Shown in pieces: positions 4,548 to 37,100 of a DNA stretch of 64,000 nt (position 1 is its first letter; every line of letters starts with the position of its first letter). The notes below the pieces were generated by a model that was not told the origin of the DNA, did not search any database, and saw nothing but the letters and a program-made list of their open reading frames with translations. The translations under genes were made by a program, and so were the position numbers. The DNA is from an uncultured Bdellovibrionales bacterium (GTDB taxonomy: Bacteria; Bdellovibrionota_G; JALEGL01; JAGRMV01): contig CAZCBX010000010.1 of the NCBI GenBank assembly GCA_964497185.1, positions 33,176 through 97,175 on the forward strand, read 5' to 3'.

Positions 4548-6308
4548 GTGAATAAAAAACACAAACTCAACGAATTGGCTTCCACCGCCATTTGTGGCAA
4601 CGATATTACATCTTCCGTACTGTATGTGTCGGCGCTCGCCATTGCTTTTGCTGGGCAATATGCGTGGATTACTTTGTTGATCGTGGCGGGGGTGCTTTTT
4701 TTATTTCGAAAAATTTACGCCGAAGTCGTGGGAGCCATCCCACTCAATGGAGGCGCTTATAACGCGCTATTAAACACAACAAGCAAGTTTATGGCTTCAT
4801 TTGCGGCCACCTTGACCATTTTGTCCTACATGGCCACGGCTGTTATTTCCGGCAACGAAGCCATGCACTATTTGCATCACTTGGTTCCATCTTTGCCGAT
4901 TATTGCAGCAACAGTGGGCTTGTTATCTTTATTTGCCATTTTGGCCCTGAGCGGGATTGGTGAGTCTGCCAAAGTGGCCATTGGAATTTTTATTTTTCAT
5001 TTGGGGTCTTTGTTGGTGTTGAGCGGGTCCATTGTTTTGTATCTGTTTCGCAATGGTTTTGGACAACTCATTGAGAATCACCAGATGCCAGTAGCCAGTG
5101 GCAGCATCACCACGGCAATCTTTTTGGGTTTTGCGGCTTCTATGTTGGGCGTATCCGGCTTTGAAAGTTCAGCCAATTTTGTGGAAGAACAAAAACGCGG
5201 TGTATTTCCAAAAACACTTCGGAACATGTGGATCATCGTATCCATCATTAATCCACTGATGGCGATTTTTGCGTTGTCTCTTTTTGCGGTTCCCACTTTG
5301 CAATCGGGTGCCTATCAAAATACGCTGCTGGTCCAAATGGGTAAACTGGCCGGCGGCTCATGGATTGCTGCGTTGGTATCGATTGATGCCGTTTTGGTAC
5401 TTAGTGGTGCGGTGTTAACCAGTTATGTGGGCGTGACGGGTTTGCTTGAACGCATGACCCTGGACCGAATTCTACCCAATTATTTTTTAGAAAAAAACCG
5501 GCGCGGCAGTTCTTATCGCATTATTCTCATGTTTTTGGCCATGTGTATTTCTGTTTTGCTTATCACCGGGGGTGACGTTCGACTTTTGGCAGGCGTATAT
5601 ACACTTTCTTTTCTTTCGGTGATGGCGCTGTTTGGCATCGGAAATATCTTATTAAAAATCAAACGTGGCGCGCTTCCTAGACCTGTAAAAGCCAGCTGGT
5701 TATCGGTGTTTTTAGCCATCGCAGCGGTAAGCGTTGCCCTATTGGGTAACATCGTGATGGAGAGAGAGGGATCCACGCAAAGCAATGTTCAAGTATTTTT
5801 AAATTACTTTATTCCTTTTATGGCTTTTATCATCATTATGCTTAATCGCACGCTGCTGCTTCACCTCGTTTTAAATGCAGTGGAGGCTATTTTTCAACCC
5901 ATGTTGCAAAGTGTGGAAAAAGTAAACCGGTCACTGACCGCTACGATCAATGAGATTAACAATCAAGAATTTGTGTTTTTTACCCGTGGAGAAAACATTG
6001 CCACGCTCAACAAAGTCATGCTCTACATTAGCAACAACGAACATACCAAACAAATCAAAATCGTAACTGTTTTAAGGGAGAACGAAGCACTGCCCAAAAT
6101 GATGGATCAAGAAATTGATTTTTTGGATAGAGAATACCCTGAAATTAGCATTGAGTTTGTGGTGCGTAGAGGGGAATTTACCCCTGAATTGATTCGTGAA
6201 CTTTCCAACGAGTGGGATATTCCCATTAACTTTATGTTTATTGGTTCGCCCAGCGATAAATTTCCTTATCGCGTAGAAGAGCTTGGCGGCGTTCGCCTTA
6301 TTATTTGA
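4548..6308 (+). CDS. APC-family amino acid permease with a ~120 aa C-terminal cytoplasmic domain
   Basis: 12-TM APC-like core (GNDITSSVLYV..., GAIPLNGGAYNALL) followed by a soluble C-terminal domain. Confidence 0.65.
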   Translation: MNKKHKLNELASTAICGNDITSSVLYVSALAIAFAGQYAWITLLIVAGVLFLFRKIYAEVVGAIPLNGGAYNALLNTTSKFMASFAATLTILSYMATAVISGNEAMHYLHHLVPSLPIIAATVGLLSLFAILALSGIGESAKVAIGIFIFHLGSLLVLSGSIVLYLFRNGFGQLIENHQMPVASGSITTAIFLGFAASMLGVSGFESSANFVEEQKRGVFPKTLRNMWIIVSIINPLMAIFALSLFAVPTLQSGAYQNTLLVQMGKLAGGSWIAALVSIDAVLVLSGAVLTSYVGVTGLLERMTLDRILPNYFLEKNRRGSSYRIILMFLAMCISVLLITGGDVRLLAGVYTLSFLSVMALFGIGNILLKIKRGALPRPVKASWLSVFLAIAAVSVALLGNIVMEREGSTQSNVQVFLNYFIPFMAFIIIMLNRTLLLHLVLNAVEAIFQPMLQSVEKVNRSLTATINEINNQEFVFFTRGENIATLNKVMLYISNNEHTKQIKIVTVLRENEALPKMMDQEIDFLDREYPEISIEFVVRRGEFTPELIRELSNEWDIPINFMFIGSPSDKFPYRVEELGGVRLII

Positions 6309-6316
6309 TCGAGATG

Positions 6317-7753
6317 TTAAGTCCCACAAAAGGTTCGTAAAACGACCTGGTCCGGGTTTGGAGGCTGCAACCATTCCGGATTTTTACCTTCGATGCAATA
6401 GGGTGTTTGCCACGCCTTGTGAAGCTGATGACATAAATCGTCTTGGCCTTGATAGGCCTGCTCAATGGCTTGCTCAATGAGGTGATTGCGTGCAATGCAA
6501 ACCGGATTAACCTTACGCATGGTGCTTTGAGCTTGCTGGATGTTCAAGGTGTGGCGGCTCAAGCTTTGCTCCCAACGTTGATAAAAATCGGCGGCGGCGG
6601 CGGAATGACGCAAGGGCGGTTGGCCAGGCAAATGATCGTGAAGCATTAAAAACGTTTGTGTGAAATCCAGTTGTTCTTCATGAAACCATTGTAAACATGC
6701 CTGAATCAGTTGCATGTCCTGGTCATCCGCCTTTAAAATGCCCAGCTTGCGCCCAAAACGATGCAGCCATTGCTGCTCGAAATATGCCTGAGCCTCCTGA
6801 ATCACTTCACCCAAGCGTTCAAAGGCATGTTGCTCTTGGTCATCCACCAGTGGTGCCAAAGATTGCGCGAGGACTGATAAGTTCCAAAGCAAAATAGAGG
6901 GCTGCTGATTGTAAGCATAACGACCTTGCTGATCAATGAAGCTAAAAGTTTTGTCTGCCTGAAAATGATCCATGAACGCACAAGGCCCGTAATCAATGGT
7001 TTCTCCGCTGATGGCCATGTTGTCGGTGTTCATCACGCCATGGATAAATCCTACGCTCATCCATTGAGCGACCAAGCGGGTCAGCGCGAAACTTACAGCT
7101 TTGAAAAAGGCCAGTGGTTGATTTTCACTGTCGCGCGCTTCTGGATAATGCACATCGATGCAGTCATCCATCAGTCGTTTCATTGCTTTATGGTCTTGCC
7201 GGGCATGAAGATACTCAAACGTGCCAATGCGTATATGACTGGTGGCCACCCGTGCCAGTATGCCCCCTGGCTCCAATGTTTGTCGCTGCACTTGTTGTTT
7301 AGTTCTGACAACACTCAAAGAACGGGTTGTAGGAATGCCCAGTCCATGCATGGCTTCACTAACCAGATATTCACGAATGGCAGGTCCCAAAGCACTGCGC
7401 CCATCGCCCCGGCGGGAAAAAGGGGTTTGACCGATGCCTTTGAGTTGTAAATCCAAGCGTTGCCCCGCGTTTGTTTGAAGCTCGCCCAACATAAGAGCTC
7501 GGCCGTCGCCCAAAATAGGCACAAAATGACCAAATTGATGCCCAGCATAAGCCAGCGCGATTGGATCGGCACCGGATGGAAGTGGCTGAGCGGCCGCAAA
7601 AGAAAGTTTTTCAGCGGTGGAAAGATGGCGCAAGCCAATTTGTTGGGCAAGTGGCTCGTTCCACATCAAGATGGATGCGTCAGGAAAAAGCGCGGGCTGA
7701 CTTTTTCGAAATAAATGTTCAGAGACGTTCTGAATGCGATGCGATTGAATCAC
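6317..7753 (-). CDS. selO: protein adenylyltransferase SelO (YdiU/UPF0061)
   Basis: 478 aa; conserved HQFGHFVPILGDGRA and GVMNTDNMAISGETIDYGPCAFMD motifs. Confidence 0.85.
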   Translation of the reverse strand: MIQSHRIQNVSEHLFRKSQPALFPDASILMWNEPLAQQIGLRHLSTAEKLSFAAAQPLPSGADPIALAYAGHQFGHFVPILGDGRALMLGELQTNAGQRLDLQLKGIGQTPFSRRGDGRSALGPAIREYLVSEAMHGLGIPTTRSLSVVRTKQQVQRQTLEPGGILARVATSHIRIGTFEYLHARQDHKAMKRLMDDCIDVHYPEARDSENQPLAFFKAVSFALTRLVAQWMSVGFIHGVMNTDNMAISGETIDYGPCAFMDHFQADKTFSFIDQQGRYAYNQQPSILLWNLSVLAQSLAPLVDDQEQHAFERLGEVIQEAQAYFEQQWLHRFGRKLGILKADDQDMQLIQACLQWFHEEQLDFTQTFLMLHDHLPGQPPLRHSAAAADFYQRWEQSLSRHTLNIQQAQSTMRKVNPVCIARNHLIEQAIEQAYQGQDDLCHQLHKAWQTPYCIEGKNPEWLQPPNPDQVVLRTFCGT

Positions 7754-9788: not shown

Positions 9789-9868
9789 GGTAAGTGTAGT
9801 GGTTAGAGGGCAATGGCTCGCTGCGCTGCGCTTTACTTGCCCTCTAACCACTACACTTACCGAGTACT
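9789..9868 (+). terminator. long perfect hairpin with a T-run; probable bidirectional terminator between convergent genes
   Basis: ggtaagtgtagtggttagagggcaa (9789-9813) is the exact reverse complement of ttgccctctaaccactacacttacc (9836-9860). The loop is 22 nt, followed by ...tactttttttt. Confidence 0.55.
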
Positions 9869-19513: not shown

Positions 19514-19557
19514 CAAAAAAGGGTTCATGAGCATTGGCTCATGAACCCTTTTTTTTA
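19514..19557. terminator. bidirectional Rho-independent terminator
   Basis: aaaaaaa-gggttcatgagc-attg-gctcatgaaccc-ttttttttt: a 12-bp perfect stem flanked by an A-run and a T-run, between convergent genes. Confidence 0.8.
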
Positions 19558-25696: not shown

Positions 25697-27244
25697 CTAT
25701 TTTTTCCACTGAATTTCATAAAGATCGTGACGACGATCTTTTAAATTTTGCACCGCGCCGGATTGCCGTGCGCTTTCCAAATCTTGAATGCGTAGATCGG
25801 CAAAGGATACGGTTTCTACATTGGGCGTGGTGTCGGCCGCAATGCCATCACGCGCAAAGGCAAAATCACACGGGGTGAGAATGCAACTTTGGGAGTATTG
25901 AATGTCCATATTTTCCACGCCAGGCAGGTTGCCTACATTGCCCGACAACACCACATAAATTTGGTTTTCAATGGCGCGGGCATGGCAGCTGTAACGAACC
26001 CGCATATAGCTTTTTCGTTCATCCGTACAAAAGGGAACAAACAAAATTTTCATGCCCTGATCGGTTAAGTGACGTGCCAACTCTGGAAACTCCGAATCAT
26101 AGCAAATCAGCACCCCAATGGTGCCACAATCGGTTTCAATGGCATGGAGTTTATCATCGCCTTTCAAGCCCCACCAAAAAACTTCATTGGGCGTGGCATG
26201 AATTTTGGATTGTTTGTGAATGGCGCCATCGCGTAAAAAAACGAAACACGTATTTTTAATGGATTGATCTTCATCAATTTCCGAGGTGGATCCACCAATG
26301 ATATTGATGTTGTAATCCATGGCCATTTTTTGCAAAACGCTGCAAAACTCTTGGGTGTAGGTATCCAGGTGGCGTACCGCTTTGGCGGGTGGCATGGGAT
26401 CGTTTTGAATGGACAGAAGCTGCATGGTGAACCACTCAGGAAACACAACAAAGTCAGCATGATAACCGCTGGCAACGTCCACAAAGTAACGAACAAATTT
26501 GGTAAATTCTTCAAACGATTGTACTTTTCTTTGCTCAAATTGAACCGTGGCCACCCGTACATACGGTTTGACGGATTTCACTTCGGTTCCTTGTTTAAAC
26601 TTTGTGGAGATGTATTTGGTATTTTTCCAATGCATCAACAAGCCATAGCCTTTGGAGTCGATGTCCGAAGGCAAATAGCGCTCAATGGGCCGAATGACTT
26701 CAAAGTCATTTCGAAATTGAAACAAAAGTGTGGAATCCCGAATTTTTCGGTTTTTGACCGCCTCTACATAACCCTCAATGCTTTTAACCCGTTTGGCATT
26801 TTTGTTGTAACGGGGCATGCGCCCCACAATGTAAATGCCTTTGAGGTTGAGTTTCTCACATAGGTTTTTGCGCGCTTGATAAAGCCGTTTGCCAATTCGC
26901 TGCCCCCTCGCATCAGGATCCACACACACCTCAAAGCCATAGAGACTATCGCCTTTGGGATCATGTCGAGACCCAAAACCGCCACCGGTAATCTCACCCC
27001 AGCTATGATCTTCCAGCGCCTGTTTAGAATTGGTTCGAAAGGTTGCGCAGTACCCAACAATCTGCCCGTTCTGCTCAACAAGCATTTGTCCTTCTGGAAA
27101 ATGATTAAGCTGCCCACGGATTTGCGCCGGTGAATAGGCGGACATGTTTTTGTAAACTTTTTTACACAGCGCAATGATGGCTTCAATGTCTTTTTCAGAA
27201 GCGATTTTAACAACGGTTTGAATTTTTCGAGCCTGTGTTTTCAT
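25697..27244 (-). CDS. bifunctional GNAT N-acetyltransferase / carbon-nitrogen hydrolase (nitrilase superfamily)
   Basis: N-terminal GNAT motif (QRIGKRLYQARKNLCEK), then a CN-hydrolase domain with catalytic-triad context (VVFPEWF, VLICYDSEFPE). Confidence 0.8.
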   Translation of the reverse strand: MKTQARKIQTVVKIASEKDIEAIIALCKKVYKNMSAYSPAQIRGQLNHFPEGQMLVEQNGQIVGYCATFRTNSKQALEDHSWGEITGGGFGSRHDPKGDSLYGFEVCVDPDARGQRIGKRLYQARKNLCEKLNLKGIYIVGRMPRYNKNAKRVKSIEGYVEAVKNRKIRDSTLLFQFRNDFEVIRPIERYLPSDIDSKGYGLLMHWKNTKYISTKFKQGTEVKSVKPYVRVATVQFEQRKVQSFEEFTKFVRYFVDVASGYHADFVVFPEWFTMQLLSIQNDPMPPAKAVRHLDTYTQEFCSVLQKMAMDYNINIIGGSTSEIDEDQSIKNTCFVFLRDGAIHKQSKIHATPNEVFWWGLKGDDKLHAIETDCGTIGVLICYDSEFPELARHLTDQGMKILFVPFCTDERKSYMRVRYSCHARAIENQIYVVLSGNVGNLPGVENMDIQYSQSCILTPCDFAFARDGIAADTTPNVETVSFADLRIQDLESARQSGAVQNLKDRRHDLYEIQWKK

Positions 27245-27351
27245 GTAGTTTAGCTTATCGCATGTTACCGGGTATGCCCAATTTTTGGGTTTATTGGCGT
27301 TTTTGTTTGGTTTTATTTGTTGGTTCTTTTTTTAAATATAAATCTGTGGGA

Positions 27352-27485
27352 CTTTGGGCTTGCCCCAGAAAAGCTCCACGAACTCCATGACGCGCCCTCC
27401 TGTCGAAGGTATTCTGAGTTGGTTGAGGGGTTTTCTTCGGCCAGGGTATCCCTTTTGTCAGACACATTCCGCTTTTCTGGGGCAA
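27352..27485. repeat. perfect 23-bp inverted repeat pair separated by 88 bp
   Basis: ctttgggcttgccccagaaaagc (27352-27374) is the exact reverse complement of gcttttctggggcaagcccaaag (27463-27485). Confidence 0.8.
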
Positions 27486-27778
27486 GCCCAAAGCTCCCCT
27501 GTAAACTTGACGGGTGGGGGTATGGTAAGCAGTCAAACGCCAAAGGCGTTTGTCTATATTCTATTTCCTACCCCAATACGTATGGTTAACAGGGCGCAGG
27601 TTCCGGAAAACTCATTGGCCTAAGATCGGCTGTATGAAAACAAAGCATGTACATCGGCAGAAAAAGCCATAAAGTTTCACCCGTTTTCGGGATGGCGTCC
27701 GGCAATCAGCAGGGGCAAAGGCCCCTGCCAATATCATGCGGCAAGGCTGTCCGAATAAGGAAAATCTGAAATCGCAGA

Positions 27779-27806
27779 AAGGGGACACACCTAAAGGTAT
27801 GTCCCC
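27779..27806 (-). terminator. candidate Rho-independent terminator downstream of the isocitrate dehydrogenase gene
   Basis: ggggacacacc-taaa-ggtatgtcccc hairpin; on the minus strand it is followed by ttctgcgatttcagatttt. It lies 115 nt past the stop. Confidence 0.4.
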
Positions 27807-27919
27807 CTGTAGCATCTTATTAGACAGGAGGAAACATCCGCGAGTCCGCGCAGCGTTTCCCCGGGGCGTGCACCTCGCCACAAATCTCTATTTAAAAAAA
27901 CCTAAACAAAAGAAAAAAA

Positions 27920-29380
27920 TCAATCCTCACCCTGAGCCATACTATAAGCCCGCTCACCATCAAACTCCCATAGCTTTTCAATATGCATCCACTCAAAAGT
28001 TTCAGCGATTTTCTGCGTCAGGCCCAAAATGTCTTGATGGGTGGCTTGGGTGCCTTGCTCTCGAACAATAAAGCGACAACGCCAATGATCAATGCAGTCT
28101 GTATAAGCGCCCATGTCTGGATACACTTTGGTACCGCGATTCGAAATCATTTTTAATTTAAGCTTGGTGTCCGCACAAATCTGATCCAACGTTTCACCCA
28201 CCACTTGACTGGGTTTTTCGCTGTCGACGAAAATATCCGCCCCCACACATACGCGATCATCGGTTTTGACAAAATCAATGTCGGGTGAGACTTCGGGCAT
28301 TTTGATTTGTTGCACTTCGCGTTGGGTCCAGTTGCTGGGAGCTTGGCCCAAATTGTCGATCACTGCTTGGGTGAAGGCATCGGTGCCCACACAGCCTTGC
28401 GTGTTTACATCGCCTGTGTATACACCTTGCTCCAGTGTATACAGGAGCGATTGTTGAATTTGGTCAGCGGCTTTCATTTCTCCGATGTGGCGAAGCATCA
28501 TCACACCCGCGAGCAATAGGGCTGTGGGGTTGGCCAGATTTTTGCCTGCGATGTCTGGGGCGCTTCCGTGAACCGCTTCGAACATGGCGGCGCGTTGTCC
28601 GATATTGGCGCTGGGAGCGAAGCCCAAGCCACCGATGAGGCCTGAGGTTAGATCGGAAAGAATGTCGCCGTTCATGTTGGTGGTGACAATGACATCAAAG
28701 GCTTCGGGGTAGCGAACCATTTGATGCGCACAATTGTCGATGATGATGTGGTCGGCTTCGATGCTCGGATACTCGGGCGCGATGTCTTCAAAAGTTTTTT
28801 TCAGCAGACCTTCGGTGAATTTCATGATGTTGGCTTTGGTGGCGCAGGTTACTTTTTTTCTTCCTTCGGCCACTGCAAATTCAAACGCAAGGCGAACAAT
28901 TTTTTCGCAGCCTTTTCGGGTGATGAGTTTAAGACATTGTGCCACGCCGGGGGTTTGCATGTGCTCGATGCCCGCATACAAATCTTCCACGTTTTCACGG
29001 ACCACCACGAGGTCAATGTTTCTGCCCGAAAATACGGTTTTGACGCTGGGCAATTCGCGAACAGGCCGAATGTTGCCATAGGTTTCAAAAAGCTTGCGCA
29101 AGGTTACGTTGGCCGATTTTTGACCGAATCCGACAGGCGTTTCCAAAGGGCCTTTAAGGGCAATGCCGTTTGTTTTAATGGAATCCAGTGTTTCGGAAGG
29201 TACGCCCGATTGGACGCCTTTTTCAAAAACCTTTTTGCCCGCCAGTTGGCGATCCCAGGTGACTTTTGCACCCGAGGCTTCGATGACTTTGCATGAGGCC
29301 TCTACCACTTCGGGACCGATGCCGTCGCCTTCAATAAGAGTGATGATTACGTTGTTGTTTTCGTCTCGTTGTAGTTGCAT
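27920..29380 (-). CDS. icd: isocitrate dehydrogenase, long-form NAD-IDH-like with a ~140 aa C-terminal extension
   Basis: IIDNCAHQMV, GSAPDIAGK and the NGDILSD-type isocitrate/isopropylmalate dehydrogenase motifs; 486 aa. Confidence 0.75.
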   Translation of the reverse strand: MQLQRDENNNVIITLIEGDGIGPEVVEASCKVIEASGAKVTWDRQLAGKKVFEKGVQSGVPSETLDSIKTNGIALKGPLETPVGFGQKSANVTLRKLFETYGNIRPVRELPSVKTVFSGRNIDLVVVRENVEDLYAGIEHMQTPGVAQCLKLITRKGCEKIVRLAFEFAVAEGRKKVTCATKANIMKFTEGLLKKTFEDIAPEYPSIEADHIIIDNCAHQMVRYPEAFDVIVTTNMNGDILSDLTSGLIGGLGFAPSANIGQRAAMFEAVHGSAPDIAGKNLANPTALLLAGVMMLRHIGEMKAADQIQQSLLYTLEQGVYTGDVNTQGCVGTDAFTQAVIDNLGQAPSNWTQREVQQIKMPEVSPDIDFVKTDDRVCVGADIFVDSEKPSQVVGETLDQICADTKLKLKMISNRGTKVYPDMGAYTDCIDHWRCRFIVREQGTQATHQDILGLTQKIAETFEWMHIEKLWEFDGERAYSMAQGED

Positions 29381-29498: not shown

Positions 29499-30365
29499 AT
29501 GCACAAAACCATGATTTCGATTACGCCTGTTCGCATTGATTTGGGCCAAGGGGCTTTCGTGCAACGCGCACTGCCCATGGATGCCATGGAGGCCATTGGA
29601 CCCTTTGTTTTTTTTGATCACATTGGCCCGGTTCCACACAAGACAGGCGATGAAATTCAAGTGCGGGCCCATCCACACATTGGTTTGGCCACCATCACCT
29701 ACTTGTTTTCGGGTGAACTCGTGCATCGAGACAGTTTGGGCAACAAACAAGTGATTGTGCCCGGAGAGGTCAATTGGATGACGGCTGGGTCAGGCATAGC
29801 CCACAGCGAACGATCCCAAATGCCTCAAAAAGGAAGTGCATTGGAGGGCATTCAAATATGGGTAGGCCTGCCCAAAGACAAGCAAGAAATGGCGCCCAGT
29901 TTTCAACATTACCCGGCCGATGCCGTGCCCACCGTGCGGCAAGATCGAGCCACCTGGCATGTGGTGGCCGGCGGTATGTTTGGTCAAACCTCTCCAGTCA
30001 AAACAGTGTCGCGGTTGTTCTATGCGCAGGGTCAATTGAAGGAAGGTTATGCTGCGTGTTTGCCCATGGATGCTACAGATCAATGGGGTTTATACCTGGT
30101 CCGTGGCCAAGTGCAGGTGGAAGATCAAGTGGTGAAGGCCAACCACTTATTAACCGGCCAAGGAGAAAGCCAGTTACACTTAAAAAGCAGCACCGATGCG
30201 CACGTCATTTTTTTTGGTGGGCCACCATTTCCAGAAAAAAGACACAAATGGTGGAATTTTGTATCCACCAGCAAGGATCGAATCGAACAAGCCAAGCAGG
30301 ATTGGCGCAAAGGTCTTTTTGCCAAAGTCGTAGACGAGGGTGAAGAGATTCCTTTGCCGGAGTGA
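29499..30365 (+). CDS. pirin family protein
   Basis: Bicupin with an N-terminal HPHIGLATITYLFSGELVHRDSLG motif (metal-binding His cluster). Confidence 0.8.
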   Translation: MHKTMISITPVRIDLGQGAFVQRALPMDAMEAIGPFVFFDHIGPVPHKTGDEIQVRAHPHIGLATITYLFSGELVHRDSLGNKQVIVPGEVNWMTAGSGIAHSERSQMPQKGSALEGIQIWVGLPKDKQEMAPSFQHYPADAVPTVRQDRATWHVVAGGMFGQTSPVKTVSRLFYAQGQLKEGYAACLPMDATDQWGLYLVRGQVQVEDQVVKANHLLTGQGESQLHLKSSTDAHVIFFGGPPFPEKRHKWWNFVSTSKDRIEQAKQDWRKGLFAKVVDEGEEIPLPE

Positions 30366-30371
30366 CCGACC

Positions 30372-31004
30372 ATGGCCATGAAGAAACCATTTTCCCCAGC
30401 TGCCCAGCGCAATCAACAAGCCATTTTGGAAGTGCTGCAGGATTACATTGATTCTTCGGTCACCAACTTACTTGAATTTGGTGCAGGCACGGGCCAGCAT
30501 GCGGTGTACATGGCTCCTTTTTTTTCGGAAACCACATGGGTGGTGTCGGATATTGCAGGCAAACATGCGGGCATACGGATGTGGCTAAAAGAAAATCCCG
30601 CCGCCAACATTGAGGGACCGATTGCCTTTAAAGTGGGCAGTCATCCATTTCCCACGGATCGTTGGTATCAAGCATTTTATACAGCCAACACCTTTCACAT
30701 CATGCCCTGGAAAAAAGTTAAAACCTTGATCAAAATGCTGGGACATCGGCTGCGCGAAGGTTCAAAAGTATTCATTTATGGCCCTTTTCGGGATGGGTCG
30801 GATTACCGCGGACAAAGCAATGTTGATTTTGATCAGGCGCTGAAACAGCAAGACCCTGCCATGGGCATACGGGACGAAAACGATGTGATTCAGACCATGT
30901 TTAAACAAGGCTTTGATCTACTGGAAAATAGAGCGATGCCCGCCAACAATCGCATCTTGGTGTTTGAGCGGTTGGAACACATTTCAGACCATCTGAAAGC
31001 GTAA
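30372..31004 (+). CDS. DUF938 domain protein (SAM-methyltransferase-like)
   Basis: KPFSPAAQRNQQAILEVL N-terminus and LEFGAGTGQHAVY Rossmann-like motif; 210 aa. Confidence 0.5.
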   Translation: MAMKKPFSPAAQRNQQAILEVLQDYIDSSVTNLLEFGAGTGQHAVYMAPFFSETTWVVSDIAGKHAGIRMWLKENPAANIEGPIAFKVGSHPFPTDRWYQAFYTANTFHIMPWKKVKTLIKMLGHRLREGSKVFIYGPFRDGSDYRGQSNVDFDQALKQQDPAMGIRDENDVIQTMFKQGFDLLENRAMPANNRILVFERLEHISDHLKA

Positions 31005-31070
31005 CCACTGGCGCATTTTGCATGGCGTAAATGGCTTGAAAAAGCAGTGAATTATTGATATGTTGCGTCA

Positions 31071-32267
31071 ATGAAGAATTTTTTCACTTTTATCATTTTA
31101 TCCATGGGCCTAACCGCTTCGGCCCATGCACAAGAGCCCATATCCTTTACGCTGGTGGGAGAAATTGCCAATGCCCAAACTTCCAAGGTTCACTCATCGA
31201 CGATTTTGCGATGTCATGCCCAAAGTGGCTGCCCCAAATATTTGCTCAATGAAAATCACTTTGAATCTTACTTTCAATACAACCGAGATATTTTGATCGA
31301 CAGAGATGGCGCGCAGTTTCGTCTGCCTGACTTCATCCTTAAAGGTGATCAAATGAATGTTTTTTTCTTTGATGCCCTGGGCCGCATGGCCAAAGTTCAT
31401 GTTACCAGGGATTTGATCCAAGACGCAATGGTGGATGCGGGGAGCATTGTGCTTCAAGAGACTGTTCAGGTCTCTGGTCAGGTGCGTTCAAGCTTTGCGG
31501 ATACGACACTGGACCTAAGCCAAATGACCATCATGGTTTCAGAAGTGAAAGCAAAAGGGGCTTTATTGTTAACCGCCGTTTCTCAAGCCACGGCCAACAA
31601 CCAATTTCATTTGAATCTTTTGCCTGGTCGCTACACCATTTTTTTTGATGCGCCGGATACATCCGATCGTTGGTTGCGAACCATTGAAACCATTGACGTC
31701 GAGGCTCAGCCCATCCATATCGAAGAAGTGTCTTTTGAAACGCCCATGGATGCTTTGATGGAGCAAAAAGCTTCTTTGTCACAAGTGTTGAAAGATTTTA
31801 ACAAGCATCAGCTCACGCCCGATCAAATTCAAGTCTATGAGCAAATCTTGCAAGCAGAAGGCAAAACGTTGGTGTATTTTACAGCCGGCTATTGTGGCCC
31901 ATGCCTTGGCAAAGATGGGTTGGCACATTACATCAACCTTGCCCATGCTTCAAACGCTGATTTTTCTGTGCTGGGCATCCACTCTGATTCGTACGGCGTC
32001 CTCAAAAATTGCCCACAAAGTCAAGATGAGATGGAAGATTATCTGGATCACAGAGAAACCTGGACGCACATTGCAAAGAGTTATCAAAAAGCCAAACAAG
32101 CCCAAGCACCTGTTCTGCTTGCGTATCAGGCACCGTCGTTGGCGAAAAACTTAGAAATCGTTGGCTACCCAACGATGCTGGTGTTTCAAGATGGCAAGCT
32201 TCAAGATTGGTTTACCGGCAGCAGCGATGAGACCAAAGAACTTCTTGAAAAATTATTGCAGCCCTGA
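31071..32267 (+). CDS. secreted thioredoxin-like (TlpA-like) domain protein
   Basis: Signal peptide MKNFFTFIILSMGLTASAHA; C-terminal thioredoxin fold with a CGPC active site (VYFTAGYCGPCLGK). Confidence 0.5.
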   Translation: MKNFFTFIILSMGLTASAHAQEPISFTLVGEIANAQTSKVHSSTILRCHAQSGCPKYLLNENHFESYFQYNRDILIDRDGAQFRLPDFILKGDQMNVFFFDALGRMAKVHVTRDLIQDAMVDAGSIVLQETVQVSGQVRSSFADTTLDLSQMTIMVSEVKAKGALLLTAVSQATANNQFHLNLLPGRYTIFFDAPDTSDRWLRTIETIDVEAQPIHIEEVSFETPMDALMEQKASLSQVLKDFNKHQLTPDQIQVYEQILQAEGKTLVYFTAGYCGPCLGKDGLAHYINLAHASNADFSVLGIHSDSYGVLKNCPQSQDEMEDYLDHRETWTHIAKSYQKAKQAQAPVLLAYQAPSLAKNLEIVGYPTMLVFQDGKLQDWFTGSSDETKELLEKLLQP

Positions 32268-32294
32268 TGAGGGGATCTTGCCATCTTTGGTGCG

Positions 32295-33623
32295 ATGGCA
32301 TACAAAGTGATCATGGATGCAAAGTCGAACATGGATCACTACGTGATACAAGATGTAACCATTTGGAATGCCGATGGCGTGGCAGAGCATCAAGACCTTG
32401 CAATCGCCCATCATAGAGTTCAATCCATTCAAGATACCAAGCCAGACCAAAACCATGGCACAACGCAAGTCATTGATGGCAAAGGATTAACTTTGTTGCC
32501 AGCCGGCATTGATTTGCACGTGCATTTGCGAGTGCCGGGACAACCTGAAAAAGAAACCCCCGAGACCGGTTTAAAAGCAGCCATGCATGGTGGGTATGGC
32601 GTGGTCATGACGATGCCCAATACCTATCCTGTCATCGATGGTTTGGAAGCGCTGGAAGAAGGCAGAGCACAAATGCAAGCCTGGGAAGAGAAAACGGGTG
32701 TTCAAGTATATTGGACCTCGTGTATCACCGAGCGCATGGATGGGCAAAAATGCGTTGATTTTGATGCCATGGCCCAAGCGGGCGTTCGCGCATTTACCGA
32801 TGATGGCAAGGGCGTGGACTCGGATGATGTGATGCGAGAAGCCTTGGCGTATTCGGCAGCATCGGGCATGCCCATTTTGCAGCACGCAGAATTTTCTGGG
32901 CATGGCGGGGTGATTGCGCCTTGTGATGTGCAGAAAAAACTAAAAGTGGGGGCATATCCGGCTGAGCCTGAGTGGACCATGGTGGAGAGAGACCTTCAAC
33001 TGCTCGAATCGTTTCCCAAAGCGCGTTATCATGTGCTTCATATTTCAAGTGAAAAAACTGTGGCATTGCTTCGACAGGCCCAGGCCAAAGGTCTGCAAGC
33101 TACAGGCGAGGTGACCCCGCATCATTTGTACTTTGATGTCACAGCCATTAATCCAGACAATCCCTCATTTAAGATGAATCCACCGCTGAGAGAAGCATCG
33201 GATCAAGCTTTTCTTTGGGAAGGGCTTCGCGATGGCACATTAAGCTACATGGCCACCGACCACGCGCCCCATGAACCAGCGGCCAAACCCAAAGATTTTG
33301 GCTGTTGCGCCTTTGGCACCACAGGTTTGGAAACGGGTTTGCGCGTATTGTTGGATGGTTATCAAAAAGGATGGCTTTCGCCGCCACGTTTGGTGGAAGT
33401 GTTTTCAACCCAACCCGCTGCATTTCTTCATCTGCAAGATACCCATGGTAAAATTGAAGTGGGCAGACCCTTTTATGCTGTACTGGTGGATGCGCAGGCC
33501 CAACCAAAACCCATTGGCCCCGATGACTTGCAAAGCAAATCAAAAAACAATGTTTTTTTGGGTGCGCCATTGGCTGGTCAGATCAAACAAGTTTTTCTAT
33601 CGCACGCCCGTGATTCCCAGTGA
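32295..33623 (+). CDS. pyrC: dihydroorotase (cyclic amidohydrolase)
   Basis: GIDLHVHLRVPG, MTMPNTYP, TPHHLYFD and ATDHAPH motifs of class I dihydroorotase. Confidence 0.7.
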   Translation: MAYKVIMDAKSNMDHYVIQDVTIWNADGVAEHQDLAIAHHRVQSIQDTKPDQNHGTTQVIDGKGLTLLPAGIDLHVHLRVPGQPEKETPETGLKAAMHGGYGVVMTMPNTYPVIDGLEALEEGRAQMQAWEEKTGVQVYWTSCITERMDGQKCVDFDAMAQAGVRAFTDDGKGVDSDDVMREALAYSAASGMPILQHAEFSGHGGVIAPCDVQKKLKVGAYPAEPEWTMVERDLQLLESFPKARYHVLHISSEKTVALLRQAQAKGLQATGEVTPHHLYFDVTAINPDNPSFKMNPPLREASDQAFLWEGLRDGTLSYMATDHAPHEPAAKPKDFGCCAFGTTGLETGLRVLLDGYQKGWLSPPRLVEVFSTQPAAFLHLQDTHGKIEVGRPFYAVLVDAQAQPKPIGPDDLQSKSKNNVFLGAPLAGQIKQVFLSHARDSQ

Positions 33624-33709
33624 GAAAATTTGTGAATTGCTTGTTCCATACAACTTCCCCCATCTACCGTAGCCATGAACCAAAATTTTAAAAGTCACTT
33701 TTTCATTTC

Positions 33710-34960
33710 ATGACCCGTACCCATGACATGGTCGTGATCGGCGGCGGGGCAGCTGGATTTTTTGGCGCCATCCGCGCAGCTCAGTGTGCAAAGGACCAGG
33801 GTCGACCCGTGGACATCCGTTTGTTGGAAGCGTCCTCTCGCTTTTTACAAAAGGTAAAAATATCGGGGGGCGGGCGCTGCAATGTAACCCACCATGATTT
33901 TTCCATTCGTGATTTTGTGGCACGGTATCCACGGGGCCAAAAAGAAATGATTTCGCCCATGCATCAGTTTCAGGCAAAGGACATGGTGCAATGGCTGGAA
34001 CGTCACGGCGTGGTGTTAAAAACAGAAGCCGATGGCCGAATGTTTCCAGTGACCGACCGCTCACAAACGGTGATCGACTGTTTGATGCATCAAGCACAAC
34101 AAAACGGCGTAAAAACCGATCTTCGTGTTCACGTCAACGACATAACGTATCAAAACAAAATCTTTAGCGTTGGGCTTGGGTCGCAAAAAATTCAAGCGAG
34201 GGCGGTATTGCTGGCGACCGGCAGTGCGCCAATGGGCTACAAGCTGGCTTCGCGATTGGGTCACCATATCACTCCAAGGGCGCCATCGTTGTTTAGCTTT
34301 AAAATTGCAGACCCAGACCTTCAGGCCATGCAGGGCATTGCATTTCCACAAGCCAAAATTCATCTCCATTTGCCACAAAAAACCTTTACGCAAGAGGGGC
34401 CCTTGCTGCTAACCCATTGGGGTGTTAGTGGCCCTGTAATTTTAAAACTTTCTGCATGGGCTGCGCGCGAGATGATGGACCAAAATTACAAGGCCAGATT
34501 GGAAATCAATTGGGTCAACCAACCGCCACAAGATGTCTTGGCGCAGTTGGCCGCACTGGCCAAACAATTTCCCAAAGCGGCCATGCAAAATCATCGCCTG
34601 CTCAATACCACGCAGCGCTTTTGGCTTTATTTGTTAAAAAAGAGTGAGGTGGACCCTCAACAACAATGGGCCCAACTGTCCAAAAAACAAAGCCAGGCGA
34701 TCTGCGATTTGTGTACCCGGCAATCTTTATCCATCGAAGGCAAAAACCGTTTTAAAGATGAGTTTGTAGAATGTGGCGGTGTTGATCTTCGCGAAATTGA
34801 CTTGAAAACAATGCAAAGTAAAAAGGTGCCAGGTCTTTATTTTGCTGGAGAGGTGATGGACGTGGATGGACTAACGGGTGGTTTTAATTTGCAACATGCC
34901 TGGACCAGTGGCTTTGTTGCGGGGAGTCATATGGCGCAATCTATTGAAGATATTCGTTAA
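33710..34960 (+). CDS. HI0933/BaiN-like NAD(P)/FAD-dependent oxidoreductase (aminoacetone oxidase family)
   Basis: MVVIGGGAAGFFGA dinucleotide fold, KISGGGRCNVTHH signature, 416 aa. Confidence 0.75.
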   Translation: MTRTHDMVVIGGGAAGFFGAIRAAQCAKDQGRPVDIRLLEASSRFLQKVKISGGGRCNVTHHDFSIRDFVARYPRGQKEMISPMHQFQAKDMVQWLERHGVVLKTEADGRMFPVTDRSQTVIDCLMHQAQQNGVKTDLRVHVNDITYQNKIFSVGLGSQKIQARAVLLATGSAPMGYKLASRLGHHITPRAPSLFSFKIADPDLQAMQGIAFPQAKIHLHLPQKTFTQEGPLLLTHWGVSGPVILKLSAWAAREMMDQNYKARLEINWVNQPPQDVLAQLAALAKQFPKAAMQNHRLLNTTQRFWLYLLKKSEVDPQQQWAQLSKKQSQAICDLCTRQSLSIEGKNRFKDEFVECGGVDLREIDLKTMQSKKVPGLYFAGEVMDVDGLTGGFNLQHAWTSGFVAGSHMAQSIEDIR

Positions 34961-35023
34961 TTTTCCATGCTTTTTTAATTCTTGTTTGACCCCCGTCCGC
35001 CGTGGTAATTCTAAAAGTAGACC

Positions 35024-36127
35024 ATGGAACCATTAAAAAACGTATACAACCGCACCTACATTCAAAAATTGGCTTTGGGGCTCAAAAAAAGCGAACCAAA
35101 GTTTGATGCGGTCGCGTTTGAAAAGGCGGTCTTTGCGGGCGACTGGAAAGATTTAGAGCTGAAAGGTCGGATGCGTCGCATTTCGATTACGATCGGAAAG
35201 TTTCTGCCCAAATATCCACGCGCACTGTCGGTGCTCTTGGATGTTGCCCCTTTCTTTCGAGACTACCACGGAATGTTTATCCCAGACTTTGTGGAAGTGT
35301 ATGGCATGTTGTCCAACCATCGTCGCAAATATTGGGATGTTTCCATTGAGATGCTGGGCGAATACACCAAATATTCATCCTCTGAATTTGCCATTCGTGC
35401 CTTTTTACTGGAGGATTTGAACGGTGTGATGAAACAAATGAAGCTTTGGTCCAAGAGTGAAAATGAACATCAGAGACGGTTAAGCAGTGAAGGCTGCCGC
35501 CCCAGATTGCCCTGGGCCGCGCAACTGCCGGAACTGAGAAAAAACCCCAAACTCATACTTCCAATTTTAGAAAATTTAAAAACCGATCCCTCAATATACG
35601 TTCGTAAAAGCGTGGCCAATAATTTAAATGATATTTCCAAAGACCATCCACAATGGGTGTTGGATGTCGCGCATCGATGGTACGGCGAGAATCTAGAGAC
35701 CGACAAAATTGTGAAACATGGTCTTCGCACGCTTTTAAAGCAAGGCAACCAAAAAGCCATTGGTTTACTGGGGTATCAAAATGCCAAAGACATTAAAGTA
35801 AAAGATTTTGTGCTTCGCACCCCGGTGGTTACTTTGGGCCAAGCACTGGACTTTTCATTTTCTTTTGAAATGCAGAAAAAAGGAAAAGTTCGTTTGGAAT
35901 ACGGAATTTATTATTTGCGCAAGAACGGTCAACACAACAAAAAAGTGTTTAAGATCAGCGAAGGCGATTTTGATACGGGCGTTTATCAATATGACCGCAA
36001 GCAAGCATTCCGAAAAATATCAACCCGTCGGCATTATGCTGGAAGCCACAAAGTTTCATTGATACTTAATGGGGAAGAAAAATGGCTTCATGAATTTGAC
36101 GTGCAGCCTCCTTCGCCCAACTCGTAA
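35024..36127 (+). CDS. DNA alkylation repair protein (AlkC/AlkD-like HEAT-repeat) with a C-terminal extension
   Basis: DPSIYVRKSVANNLNDISKDHPQWV motif characteristic of PF08713. Confidence 0.55.
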   Translation: MEPLKNVYNRTYIQKLALGLKKSEPKFDAVAFEKAVFAGDWKDLELKGRMRRISITIGKFLPKYPRALSVLLDVAPFFRDYHGMFIPDFVEVYGMLSNHRRKYWDVSIEMLGEYTKYSSSEFAIRAFLLEDLNGVMKQMKLWSKSENEHQRRLSSEGCRPRLPWAAQLPELRKNPKLILPILENLKTDPSIYVRKSVANNLNDISKDHPQWVLDVAHRWYGENLETDKIVKHGLRTLLKQGNQKAIGLLGYQNAKDIKVKDFVLRTPVVTLGQALDFSFSFEMQKKGKVRLEYGIYYLRKNGQHNKKVFKISEGDFDTGVYQYDRKQAFRKISTRRHYAGSHKVSLILNGEEKWLHEFDVQPPSPNS

Positions 36128-36173
36128 CACTCGAATCATTGGTGATTGCCGGCGATCATGATAAAACAGCTTC

Positions 36174-37100
36174 ATGAGTCGCCCTTTGCCCAAATTTTCA
36201 GACCCGAAATGGACGGCAGATGGACAAGCGCGCGCATGGGTAGAGCCTACCCAGCTTCAAACACTTTGGTTAAACACGGGAACGCAATGCAATCTTGCCT
36301 GCAAACATTGCTACATTGAATCCTCGCCCATTAACGATCGATTGGTGTATCTGACCATGCAAGATATTCAGCCCTACTTGGATGAAATTCAAGCGCATCA
36401 TCACACGCCACGGGAAATAGGTCTAACCGGTGGTGAACCATTTTTAAACCCAGCCATCATGAATATTTTGCAAAGCTTATGCGCGCAGGGCTACAGCATT
36501 TTAATCTTAACCAACGCGATGAAACCCCTGCAAAAAAAGATCAACGCGTTGAAAGATTTGTCTCAAAAGTATCCCAAAAAGCTTTCATTTCGAGTCTCAG
36601 TGGATCATTACACCCAGCAAGTCCACGAGCAAGAACGAGGTCCTCGGTCGTGGCAGCCCATGGTTGAGGGGATTCATGCGCTTTTTCAAGCCAATATGCA
36701 GGTGTCTATTGCTGGAAGATCGCTGACCGATGAGTCGCAAGCGCAAGTATTAAAAGGCTATCAAAAGCTTTTTGATCGGGAGCAATGGCCTTTGCAAGCC
36801 GAAGATTCTACTGACTTGATTGTGTTTGCAGAAATGGAGCCCAACGCCCAAGTCCCTGAAATTACCACTGGATGTTGGTCTATTTTGGGCAAAGATCCGA
36901 AAGACATCATGTGCGCCAGTTCGCGCATGATTGTCAAAAGAAAAGGGAAAAAACAGCCCGAAGTCATTGCTTGCACTTTGCTGCCTTATGAAGAAGAATT
37001 TTCACTGGGCACCACGTTTCAACAAGCGTGGCAGCCTGTTTATTTAAATCACGTTCACTGCGCTACATTTTGTGTGCTGGGTGGATCATCTTGCAGTTAA
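36174..37100 (+). CDS. radical SAM / Cys-rich domain protein (ArsS-like, TIGR04167-type)
   Basis: CNLACKHC (CxxxCxxC) near the N-terminus, GGEPFLNP motif, and a Cys-rich C-terminal tail (CWSILG...CASS...CTLL...HCATFCVLGGSSCS). Confidence 0.55.
   Translation: MSRPLPKFSDPKWTADGQARAWVEPTQLQTLWLNTGTQCNLACKHCYIESSPINDRLVYLTMQDIQPYLDEIQAHHHTPREIGLTGGEPFLNPAIMNILQSLCAQGYSILILTNAMKPLQKKINALKDLSQKYPKKLSFRVSVDHYTQQVHEQERGPRSWQPMVEGIHALFQANMQVSIAGRSLTDESQAQVLKGYQKLFDREQWPLQAEDSTDLIVFAEMEPNAQVPEITTGCWSILGKDPKDIMCASSRMIVKRKGKKQPEVIACTLLPYEEEFSLGTTFQQAWQPVYLNHVHCATFCVLGGSSCS

Follow-up and report, generated by a model that had tools for sequence, protein, structure and literature searches.

Several kinds of bacterial sequence resemble the element considered here. 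Prokaryotic miniature elements of the MITE type are short, carry terminal inverted repeats, lie at AT-rich intergenic sites, and give rise to transcripts with very stable stem-loops, a published definition that the element fits (PMC10969869). Like the Correia elements of Neisseria (CREE/NEMIS), the QMITEs of Coxiella, and the ERIC sequences of enterobacteria, it is non-coding and bounded by terminal inverted repeats, and like them it occupies AT-rich intergenic sites at unrelated loci and is predicted to form a stem-loop of extreme stability. Within read-through mRNAs, Correia elements are cut by RNase III, and they can carry promoters (PMC10969869), the same mode of action that I propose below for the element. 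It departs from the MITEs in length (about 450-650 nt, whereas MITEs are typically under 500 nt and often 100-250 nt), in having terminal repeats that are long and only 70-87% matched, in the inverted repeats nested within it, one of them a perfect stem of 23 bp with a loop of 96 nt, and in being known from two copies only.

Other comparisons are instructive. The pneumococcal BOX, RUP, and SPRITE repeats and the REP/BIME sequences share with the element a modular build with conserved ends and a variable middle, a position in spacers between co-directional genes, strong secondary structure, and a concentration of strain variation within the repeats. There is no sequence relationship, however, the copy number of the element appears to be low, and its modules far exceed REP (~35 nt) and the BOX subunits in length. 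The mRNAs of hok/sok-like type I systems and leader-peptide attenuators have, as does the element, a small ORF with a strong ribosome-binding site in a long and tightly folded RNA whose 5' and 3' parts pair over long range, and they share with it the character of a multi-copy intergenic module. The peptide encoded by the element is not a membrane helix, in contrast to type I toxins, there is no evident antisense RNA gene, and the evidence for coding consists of three synonymous sites. Finally, CRISPR spacers resemble the element in that 23-24 nt identical to a phage gene are kept in the host chromosome, and eukaryotic hpRNA loci and young plant miRNA loci resemble it in that a segment derived from a target forms an inverted duplication with a perfect stem. 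Unlike CRISPR, the element has neither an array of direct repeats nor cas genes, and the same "spacer" is present in both copies; its match may be passive capture or, less likely, chance. No bacterial machinery is known to use such hairpins.

The Locus and Its Flanking Genes

The element was found within a 64-kb stretch of DNA (the window), where the region from 27245 to 27919 separates two genes on the minus strand:

27920-29380, minus strand: icd (NADP-isocitrate dehydrogenase), the upstream flanking gene, outside the element
25697-27244, minus strand: fusion of a GNAT acetyltransferase and a carbon-nitrogen hydrolase, the downstream flanking gene, outside the element

The region had been singled out in an initial annotation as the longest noncoding stretch of the window, and at 675 nt it is so by a wide measure, since no other gap exceeds 207 nt. 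It is also coding-free, as had been claimed, to the extent that none of its 8 ORFs has a match in Pfam. Comparison with all the loci of this study by tblastx and blastn gave matches only to the region itself and to its paralogue, and blastn against plasmids and isolate phages, including hits up to E≤10, gave no significant match. A 44-aa ORF called by JGI has a frameshift in the window allele, i.e., it is broken between strains, and changes between copies in the frame of the long ORF are mostly non-synonymous. The possibility of a pseudogene is contradicted by the presence of a second copy elsewhere, and there is no protein similarity in any frame.

Nor is the region a conserved leader or trailer, because close relatives of both flanking genes have short spacers. 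Homologues of the GNAT gene (76% and 71% identity) are preceded by only 85-105 nt, an icd homologue at 81% is followed by 32 nt, and both sets of relatives (81% and 71% for icd, 76% and 71% for GNAT) have other neighbours. A scan for icd synteny amongst GTDB representatives found no close relative, the best (82%) being on a contig of 1.4 kb.

Architecture and Predicted Fold

From the icd stop codon the element stretches to a point ~35 nt before the GNAT start codon, with A/T-rich inverted complementarity continuing to 27923. Its parts are as follows (no strand is given where none applies):

27279-27925: the whole repeated palindromic element; homology to the second copy begins at 27279, and the boundaries are approximate
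27327-27349: left terminal inverted repeat, with the core TAAATATAAATCTGTGG after a T-run and a diverged part to 27407
27352-27374, plus strand: left arm of the perfect inverted repeat of 23 bp, CTTTGGGCTTGCCCCAGAAAAGC, found in identical form on the sense strand of a phage major-capsid gene
27375-27470: loop of the long hairpin, 96 nt, its ends invariant between copies
27471-27494, plus strand: right arm, 23 nt of it paired, 24 nt of it the antisense of the phage capsid gene
27531-27555: domain-2 hairpin, AGTCAAACGCC-AAA-GGCGTTTGTCT, with the stem 27534-27541 / 27545-27552
27593-27612: 5' strand (C) of a long-range helix in the minimum free energy (MFE) fold, closing the variable middle domain
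27613-27833: variable middle domain, about 220-230 nt, with local hairpins
27853-27879: 3' strand (C') of the long-range helix, within the conserved right module 27834-27891
27878-27900: right terminal inverted repeat, its complementarity with the left core being 87%
Element ends (terminal repeat): carry TAAATRTARATYTGTGG

The terminal inverted repeats, previously given as 16 of 20 positions matching, are complementary at 20 of 23 positions (27327-27349 / 27878-27900). They form the core of a longer and more diverged repeat, ~70% matched over ~81 nt (27326-27407 / 27820-27900), in that a diverged inverted copy of the left ~80-115 nt occupies about 27800-27900. The perfect 23-bp inverted repeat exists as described, except that its second arm lies at 27471-27493 rather than at 27463-27485, and what it encloses is not an 88-nt GC-rich domain but a loop of 96 nt that is only mildly GC-rich (53%). 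The centre of this loop (~27390-27445) is hypervariable, and an inner hairpin is kept there with a different sequence. The coordinates of the initial annotation were in part off by about 8 nt.

Further hairpins are found to the right. That reported at 27526-27544 is present, its true position being 27531-27555. The middle domain contains local hairpins at 27681-27692, at ~27709-27728 (corresponding to the GC stem placed at 27708-27727), and at 27781-27806. The last is a 12-bp hairpin, 92% paired, close to the 27779-27806 expected of it; the terminator on the minus strand that it was said to form did not pass the terminator scan. One terminator-like hairpin was found on the plus strand (27534-27552). 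Over the region as a whole there were no promoter-like sites, and terminator-like sites did not rise above the expectation from shuffled sequence.

The region is predicted to fold with an MFE of -232.6 kcal/mol (plus strand) or -239.3 kcal/mol (minus strand), as compared with -185 +/- 7 kcal/mol for 150 dinucleotide shuffles, giving z-scores of -6.4 and -7.9, respectively. Fifteen other 626-nt stretches of the window ranged from -159 to -212 kcal/mol. The fold is thus far above chance. As to the earlier suggestion of an unmodelled structured RNA, there is no Rfam match and no useful covariation. Nothing in the window reached the gathering score of any Rfam family, and the region gave chance-level matches only, at E≤10; the second copy gave none at E≤1. 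The families of Rfam 15 that were looked for and not found include SRP, RNase P, tmRNA, 6S, OLE, GOLLD, HEARO, ROOL, raiA, and riboswitches, and ARAGORN found no tRNA or tmRNA. The SRP-like CAGGTTCCGGAAAAC seen by eye has no support from Rfam and turns out to be a strand of the long-range helix 27593-27612 / 27853-27879.

A Second Copy between hup and nuoA

A second copy occupies the spacer between hup and nuoA, ~100 kb away on the same metagenomic contig (Ga0450804_2074418, 436,929 bp). It was reached by way of a spurious ORF of the element, through which two entries, P0243 and P0246, were found, the latter on the contig that carries the icd locus (P0246 locus at 275-288 kb, icd locus at 373-385 kb). 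The element is therefore not single-copy in its genome: there are at least two copies on one chromosome-scale contig, in unrelated intergenic spacers. Each spans a spacer between co-directional genes, from the stop codon of the upstream gene to a few tens of nt before the start of the downstream gene, and the second copy (in L095) has the same orientation relative to its flanking genes as the copy in the window.

The left ~320 nt (window 27279-27601, L095 6020-6345) are 82% identical between the two, and the right module of ~58 nt (window 27834-27891, L095 6444-6502) is 88% identical. The modules are common to both copies and comprise a terminal repeat, a hairpin of 23(+3) bp with a loop of ~96 nt, a second hairpin, and a long-range helix, equivalent but longer in L095 (6348-6358 / 6468-6478). 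In both, the terminal inverted repeats are imperfect and the middle part enclosed by the long-range helix varies in length, measuring about 220-230 nt in the window and ~100 nt in the second copy. The core of the terminal repeat is common to both (left end in L095 at 6074-6090), the right end of the second copy being degenerate. The stem of the domain-2 hairpin is identical, with its 3-nt loop flipped (AAA in one copy, TTT in the other). The predicted three-domain fold is likewise common to both and has strongly negative z-scores in each.

The most conserved parts are the arms of the long hairpin. Neither arm (27352-27374 or 27471-27494) differs at any position between the copies, and the surrounding blocks, of 46 and 52 nt, are likewise 100% identical, although the copies otherwise share only about 82% identity, which argues for either selection on the sequence or recent conversion.

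Further copies were sought in several ways. No third copy lies in the 64-kb window. Six degenerate patterns found no match in the viral and JGI metagenome collections, the window's own locus being absent from the collection as well. A pseudo-protein made from two spurious ORFs found no match in viral or JGI metagenome contigs, five spurious ORFs sought by exact look-up are absent from the collection, and a profile of a spurious ORF matched P0243 only.

Variation between Strains

Differences between strains cluster in the element, in patches that look like gene conversion. Between the window and L001, compared over 11.4 kb, 4 of the 6 differences fall within 35 nt of the loop. At the three substitutions, L001 has the base of the paralogue, and at the indel it has the length of the paralogue. 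At the other locus, L094 and L095 differ at 11 positions, all within the element and none in nuoA. In none of the seven sequences from the two loci is the 96-nt segment inverted relative to the others.

Identity of the Hairpin Arms to a Phage Capsid Gene

The right arm (24 nt) and the left arm (23 nt) match exactly two viral contigs, representing one phage, IMGVR_UViG_3300044676_003227. The match is in frame inside the major head gene, and the identity ends 0-1 nt from the boundaries of the stem. The codons concerned encode GFGLAPEK, a motif conserved across Mu GpT-like capsids, and so the phage sequence is the ancestral one. For a 24-mer, about 1e-5 to 1e-4 matches would be expected in the viral set, and at most 1e-3 once the seven patterns tried are allowed for; a random 16-mer gave one match in that set. 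A 20-mer of the arm occurs one other time in 241 million metagenome records.

Six other patterns, amongst them the terminal repeat, a 20-mer of the right module, the loop block, and the hairpin-2 pattern, had no viral match, isolate phages gave no significant match, and comparison of the element with 14.4 + 7.8 kb of phage sequence showed no further similarity. Two weaker matches were set aside as chance: one of 20 (+5) nt in L093, in the region of a sulfatase-like gene that encodes a signal peptide, its length being what that database would be expected to yield, and one of 14 nt to a second phage gene.

A Candidate Small ORF

The minus strand of the element contains a candidate ORF preceded by a possible ribosome-binding site:

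27332-27388, minus strand: candidate 18-codon ORF, MEFVELFWGKPKVPQIYI followed by a stop, with its ATG at 27388-27386
27396-27401, minus strand: AGGAGG, Shine-Dalgarno-like, 7 nt upstream of the start of the micro-ORF

The ORF overlaps the left arm and terminates inside the left terminal repeat. AGGAGG occurs 10 times in 64 kb, two of them within the element. The peptide is the same in the copy at the nuo locus, the three differences (27338, 27341, and 27344) all being at synonymous third positions. It is too short, at 18 aa, for profile tools.

Discussion

The reading I favour, with moderate confidence, is that the region is one copy of a non-coding, AT-flanked palindromic family, MITE-like, and most likely a non-autonomous mobile element. 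It is short and codes for no transposase or other protein (about 640 nt in the window, about 520 nt for the second copy); it has terminal inverted repeats, 87% matched in the core and ~70% over ~81 nt; and it is dispersed, if at the minimum of two copies, in different gene contexts. Its length of about 640 nt and its diverged terminal repeats of ~80 nt exceed those of typical MITEs. The initial annotation had proposed a MITE-like remnant, and the second copy, in the unrelated context of hup-nuoA, speaks for that proposal, but no convincing target-site duplication was found. TTTAAA flanks both ends of the window copy and is missing at the right end of the second; as TTTAAA is palindromic, it is indistinguishable from a continuation of the terminal repeat. 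The search over +/-18 kb revealed no transposase, integrase, or recombinase, and neither in the 64-kb window nor in the +/-6 kb around the second copy was an autonomous IS or transposase with matching ends found. The complete identity of the blocks around the arms counts against a purely selfish element, which has no obvious need for it.

The same data may be read in other ways. The fold of ~500-600 nt in three domains might be the functional product, i.e., the two copies might be paralogous structured ncRNAs, or they might be cis-acting 5' leaders regulating the downstream operons, GNAT/nitrilase and nuo. Taken jointly, these seem to me unlikely, despite the very negative z-scores in both copies, the enclosure of insertions of variable length by the same helices, and the position of both copies directly upstream of, and co-oriented with, a gene or operon. 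Within the loop, the inner hairpin keeps six pairs on the plus strand through G-U/A-U or G-C/G-U changes, and of the 11 transition mismatches of the terminal helix, 9 would pair as G-U in an RNA of the minus strand. This asymmetry favours opposite strands in different helices, as is expected for decaying DNA palindromes, and a strand assignment by G-U asymmetry was rejected for the same contradiction. Amongst about 75 pairs, compared over two paralogues and strain variants only, none on the plus strand and 2 on the minus strand are compensatory. Furthermore, neither copy has a match in Rfam even at E≤10 or E≤1, relatives lack the region at both places, upstream of the GNAT orthologue and downstream of that of icd, and a perfect 23-bp stem without wobble pairs is more typical of a repeat at the level of DNA. 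If instead the 18-codon ORF and its AGGAGG were what is selected, the hairpins would control translation as they do in type I toxin mRNAs or leader peptides: part of the ORF falls in the 3' arm of the 23-bp stem, with its AUG within a small hairpin. Type I toxin-antitoxin loci are typically multi-copy intergenic modules with heavily folded mRNAs. The arrangement AGGAGG-N7-ATG is present although such sites are rare (11 of 44 genes), and an identical peptide with three consecutive differences at synonymous third positions would arise by chance about 4% of the time. Against this, most of the ORF lies in blocks that are already invariant, so that only three sites are informative, and the 18-aa peptide, with four charged residues (two E and two K) as well as two P, has no stretch of transmembrane length and is not a hydrophobic transmembrane helix. 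The inverted right-hand copy also reads '...PQI(S)I*', without a start codon, and the pattern may therefore derive from the coding end of the C-terminus of a parent transposase; transposase coding ends often fall inside the terminal repeat. I consider a selected small protein quite improbable.

The arms themselves may have been copied from the major-capsid gene to make an antisense or double-stranded RNA, or a sensor of capsid mRNA, thereby constituting a heritable, chromosomal, non-CRISPR memory of phage that would act through RNase III-type cleavage or a block of translation. More specifically, a MITE-like carrier would hold a multi-copy hairpin in which the antisense or double-stranded RNA against capsid mRNA is caged, or in which a sensor gates translation of the 18-codon ORF. 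The exact identity over 24 and 23 nt, in frame and delimited by the stem, and the complete conservation of the arms between copies speak for this. The match is a single one, however; the same arms appear in both copies, so there is nothing like a repertoire of different "spacers"; no Argonaute, Cas, or reverse transcriptase lies near either copy; and the picture would be no different if a phage fragment had been taken up passively as filler DNA and then duplicated in inverted form. Both the general notion and its specific form strike me as very unlikely. A CRISPR array was considered and rejected, as direct repeats, whether tandem or interspaced, were not found and none of the annotated neighbours has a cas domain, the only CRISPR-like trait being the resemblance of the phage-identical 24-mer to a spacer. 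Least credible, to the point of being extremely improbable, is a plain spacer or gene remnant, whether terminators and promoters that have accumulated between two genes, a pseudogene in decay, or an inverton with the 23-bp repeats at its ends. The terminator-like hairpin on the plus strand is in keeping with it, and perfect inverted repeats around ~100 bp are the hallmark of invertons. The same modules recur at a second locus, though, which is unexpected of a locus-specific sequence, the scans for promoters and terminators gave nothing above shuffle level, and similarity to protein is absent in any frame. The inverton in particular is rejected in view of the constant orientation of the loop (7 of 7 sequences of the two loci) and the lack of an invertase nearby or of a recombinase domain in the neighbouring genes.

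If the element is indeed MITE-like, it would have spread by transposition in trans, by means of a transposase encoded elsewhere, and gene conversion would homogenise the copies. The copies are probably transcribed by read-through, as each follows a gene of the same strand. Such an RNA would take the form of a three-domain cruciform, its long perfect stem would be a substrate of the RNase III type, and the likely effect of such a stem would thus be to end or process the upstream transcript and to insulate the downstream gene. The A-rich end may also provide an outward -35 element, with TTGAAT-17-TATATA ahead of nuoA and, ahead of the GNAT gene, a far weaker match.

As a MITE-like repeat, the element would represent a new family of intergenic repeats with strong structure, from a Bdellovibrionota-like lineage that has hardly been sampled, and would be fairly ordinary apart from the arms of 23 bases identical to part of a phage capsid gene. 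Repeats of this kind alter the boundaries of operons and can readily be taken for RNA genes, and the spurious ORFs on them can reveal further copies in protein catalogues when DNA searches are lacking. Should the memory of phage turn out to be real, it would be an RNA-based anti-phage mechanism without CRISPR repeats or cas genes, and if the identity with the capsid gene is more than passive capture, it would suggest that phage sequence can be stored in host genomes in a way not recognised before.

A Structured Gap between Two Genes

The gene-free gap at 27245-27919, which the initial annotation took for the longest coding-free stretch of the window, is indeed so: it spans 675 nt, while all other gaps in the 64 kb are of 207 nt or less. 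The inverted repeats described at its two ends are also present, with complementarity that extends over about 81 nt or more at about 70%. The perfect 23-bp repeat exists, but its second arm lies 8 nt further right than first described and encloses, with the first, a loop of 96 nt rather than 88. With coordinates so corrected, the observation of a structured gap is real.

Features of the gap and its flanks (repeats from a repeat finder)
25697-27244, minus strand: GNAT + carbon-nitrogen-hydrolase fusion gene, flanking the gap
27327-27349 / 27878-27900: terminal inverted repeat, 87% complementary
27352-27374 / 27471-27493: perfect 23-bp inverted repeat, loop of 96 nt
27531-27555: hairpin, the second hairpin domain
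27781-27806: hairpin
27920-29380, minus strand: NADP-isocitrate dehydrogenase gene (icd), flanking the gap

The minimum free energy of the fold is -232.6 kcal/mol on the plus strand and -239.3 on the minus strand, as compared to -185 ± 7 for dinucleotide shuffles (z of -6.4 and -7.9, respectively, from 150 shuffles) and -159 to -212 kcal/mol for 15 other 626-nt pieces of the window.

Elsewhere in the window, a perfect 25-bp inverted repeat with a 23-nt loop (9789-9813 / 9837-9861) lies in the 136-nt spacer of convergent genes; its sequence is not related to that of the element, and one 20-mer taken from this repeat found no viral match. Also between convergent genes is a perfect palindrome of 18 bp (19515-19554), whose loop is 4 nt and whose flanks are A6 and T6; it looks like a bidirectional intrinsic terminator.

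Comparison with Known Classes

The search of Rfam, proposed in the initial annotation for a structured-RNA family, matched none: there are no gathering-score matches anywhere in the window, and those in the region at E ≤ 10 are chance matches to eukaryotic or viral families. No tRNA or tmRNA gene was found, nor a CRISPR-like array, and blastn against plasmid and isolate-phage collections returned nothing for the region. No domain of a transposase, recombinase, reverse transcriptase, Cas protein or Argonaute was found out to about 18 kb from the window copy and 6 kb from the second copy described below.

A protein-coding remnant was rejected, since a Pfam search of eight ORFs returned no match; a 44-aa ORF called by JGI has its frame broken in the window allele by a 1-nt indel. 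A conserved leader or trailer is ruled out by the short spacers at relatives of the flanking genes. The source organism is an uncultured Bdellovibrionota-like lineage, and in its closest icd relatives (81-82% and 71% identical) unrelated genes start 0-32 nt downstream of icd; GNAT orthologues (76% and 71% identity) have upstream spacers of 85-105 nt. Where icd is 71% identical (relatives L085/L086), that gene adjoins FeThRed_B-nitroreductase-PfkB, while in the window (29499-37100) nitroreductase and PfkB lie about 8-10 kb from icd, with Pirin, DUF938, DHOase and others intervening. Because gene order differs in this way, this lineage has undergone rearrangement on either side of icd.

A Second Copy on the Same Contig

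The translation of a spurious ORF within the element (27317-27586, plus strand) served as query against 1.84 billion representative proteins. It matched a "hypothetical protein" of 91 aa (P0243), with 78% identity in the left part, on a contig (L094) where the element adjoins nuoA. The second member of that protein's 90% cluster (P0246) is encoded on the 436,929-bp contig of the icd locus, at 275-288 kb as against 373-385 kb. The MITE-like reading of the initial annotation thus gains an extra copy in the same genome, which fills the 557-nt spacer from the HU gene (hup) to nuoA, where the nuo operon begins (L095). The two loci are on opposite contig strands, and both copies are oriented alike relative to their co-directional flanking genes.

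The copies have in common the left 320 nt or so (27279-27601 vs L095 6020-6345, 82%) and a right module (27834-27891 vs L095 6444-6502, 88%), while the middle domain measures about 220-230 nt in the window as against about 100 nt in the second copy, whose right end is degenerate. The core of the left terminal repeat occurs in all copies and nowhere else within the window. The fold of the second copy has z of -7.0 (minus strand) and -5.7 (plus strand), and the predicted architecture is identical in both.

Predicted architecture common to both copies
A/T-rich closing helix with the terminal repeat
23(+3)-bp hairpin with a loop of about 96 nt
27531-27555: second hairpin domain
27593-27612 / 27853-27879: long helix C/C' around the variable middle

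Differences between strains are patchy. The same locus from another sample (L001) differs from the window at 6 positions in 11.46 kb, and 4 of these (three substitutions, at 27393, 27409 and 27411, and an indel at 27426) fall in 35 nt of the hairpin loop. L001 agrees with the nuo-locus paralogue in the base at each substitution and in length at the indel, so that the four look like one conversion patch and not like independent mutations. Likewise, all 11 differences between L094 and L095 (935 nt) fall inside the element, at L095 6371-6438, with none in nuoA. The patches (27390-27427 and L095 6371-6438) suggest that the copies undergo gene conversion or that the sequence is locally hypermutable. 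The paralogues are 100% identical over blocks of 46 and 52 nt that surround the two arms, and in the loop centre about 17 of 60 positions differ, with an inner hairpin retained. The loop of hairpin 27531-27555 reads AAA (27542-27544) in one copy and TTT (L095 ~6290-6292) in the other, on identical stems, a small hairpin-mediated inversion or "flip".

The element behaves like a repeated DNA element. Prokaryotic MITEs are short, with terminal inverted repeats, AT-rich intergenic sites and very stable stem-loop transcripts, and the Correia elements among the published cases undergo RNase III processing and have promoter effects (PMC10969869); the element's behaviour fits that description. No convincing target-site duplication was found, the sole repeated flank being TTTAAA, itself palindromic; nor was a parent IS, in the window or within 6 kb of the second copy, and the copies found number two. 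The second copy and the repeat-type dynamics support assignment to the MITE-like palindromic intergenic repeats. That the copies are instead paralogous structured non-coding RNAs or cis-acting leaders, as the stable folds and common architecture might be read, I regard as unlikely. Among about 75 pairs, none is compensatory on the plus strand and two are on the minus strand, numbers that leave covariation uninformative, and wobble asymmetries favour different strands in different helices.

Hairpin Arms and a Phage Capsid Gene

Two IMG/VR contigs that represent one phage (99% identity) match a 20-mer of the hairpin arm, at L090 3798-3821 and L091 6689-6712. The identity covers 24 nt of the right arm (27471-27494) and 23 nt of the left (27352-27374), stops 0-1 nt from the stem boundaries and lies in frame within the major head gene (phrog_371). 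The matched codons specify GFGLAPEK, a motif conserved across distant phages with Mu GpT-like capsids, and therefore the phage sequence is the ancestral one. As calibration, a random 16-mer matched the viral set once, and six other patterns did not match it; for a 24-nt identity in that set my chance estimate is about 1e-5 to 1e-4 for each pattern, and at most 1e-3 once multiple testing is allowed for. The rest of the element bears no resemblance to the 14.4 + 7.8 kb of phage sequence compared.

In 241 million metagenome records the arm 20-mer occurs once more, at an unrelated site where the exact match ends at 20 nt. This site (L093 720-744, Ga0209013_10001321) has 5 further matching nt beyond a gap of 1 nt; it falls where a sulfatase-like gene encodes its signal peptide, and was judged a chance match. 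Negatives from the JGI metagenome collection are weak for this organism, since the window's own locus was not returned although three contigs (L001-L003) carry it.

The mundane reading is that a phage fragment was passively captured and then duplicated in inverted orientation. An antisense or hairpin role against phage would make use of the same identity, but I think it very improbable: both copies have the same arms, and so there is no spacer-like repertoire.

A Candidate Micro-ORF

One arm is crossed by a candidate reading frame that ends inside the terminal repeat.

Features of the candidate micro-ORF
27396-27401, minus strand: AGGAGG, a strong ribosome-binding-site motif, preceding the micro-ORF
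27388 to 27332, minus strand: candidate 18-codon micro-ORF with an AGGAGG-N7-ATG start, MEFVELFWGKPKVPQIYI

The lineage is one of low Shine-Dalgarno usage, given that such a motif precedes about one quarter of 44 putative gene starts in the window and there are 10 occurrences of AGGAGG in 64 kb. The second copy (L095 ~6073-6129) would encode an identical peptide, and the only nucleotide differences are three consecutive synonymous third positions, a pattern expected by chance about 4% of the time. Since the inverted copy at the right end, though decayed, retains "...PQISI*" but no start codon, the micro-ORF pattern may be a relic of the C-terminal end of a parent transposase. It is this micro-ORF, together with the phage-identical and perfectly conserved hairpin arms, that makes the element worth following up.
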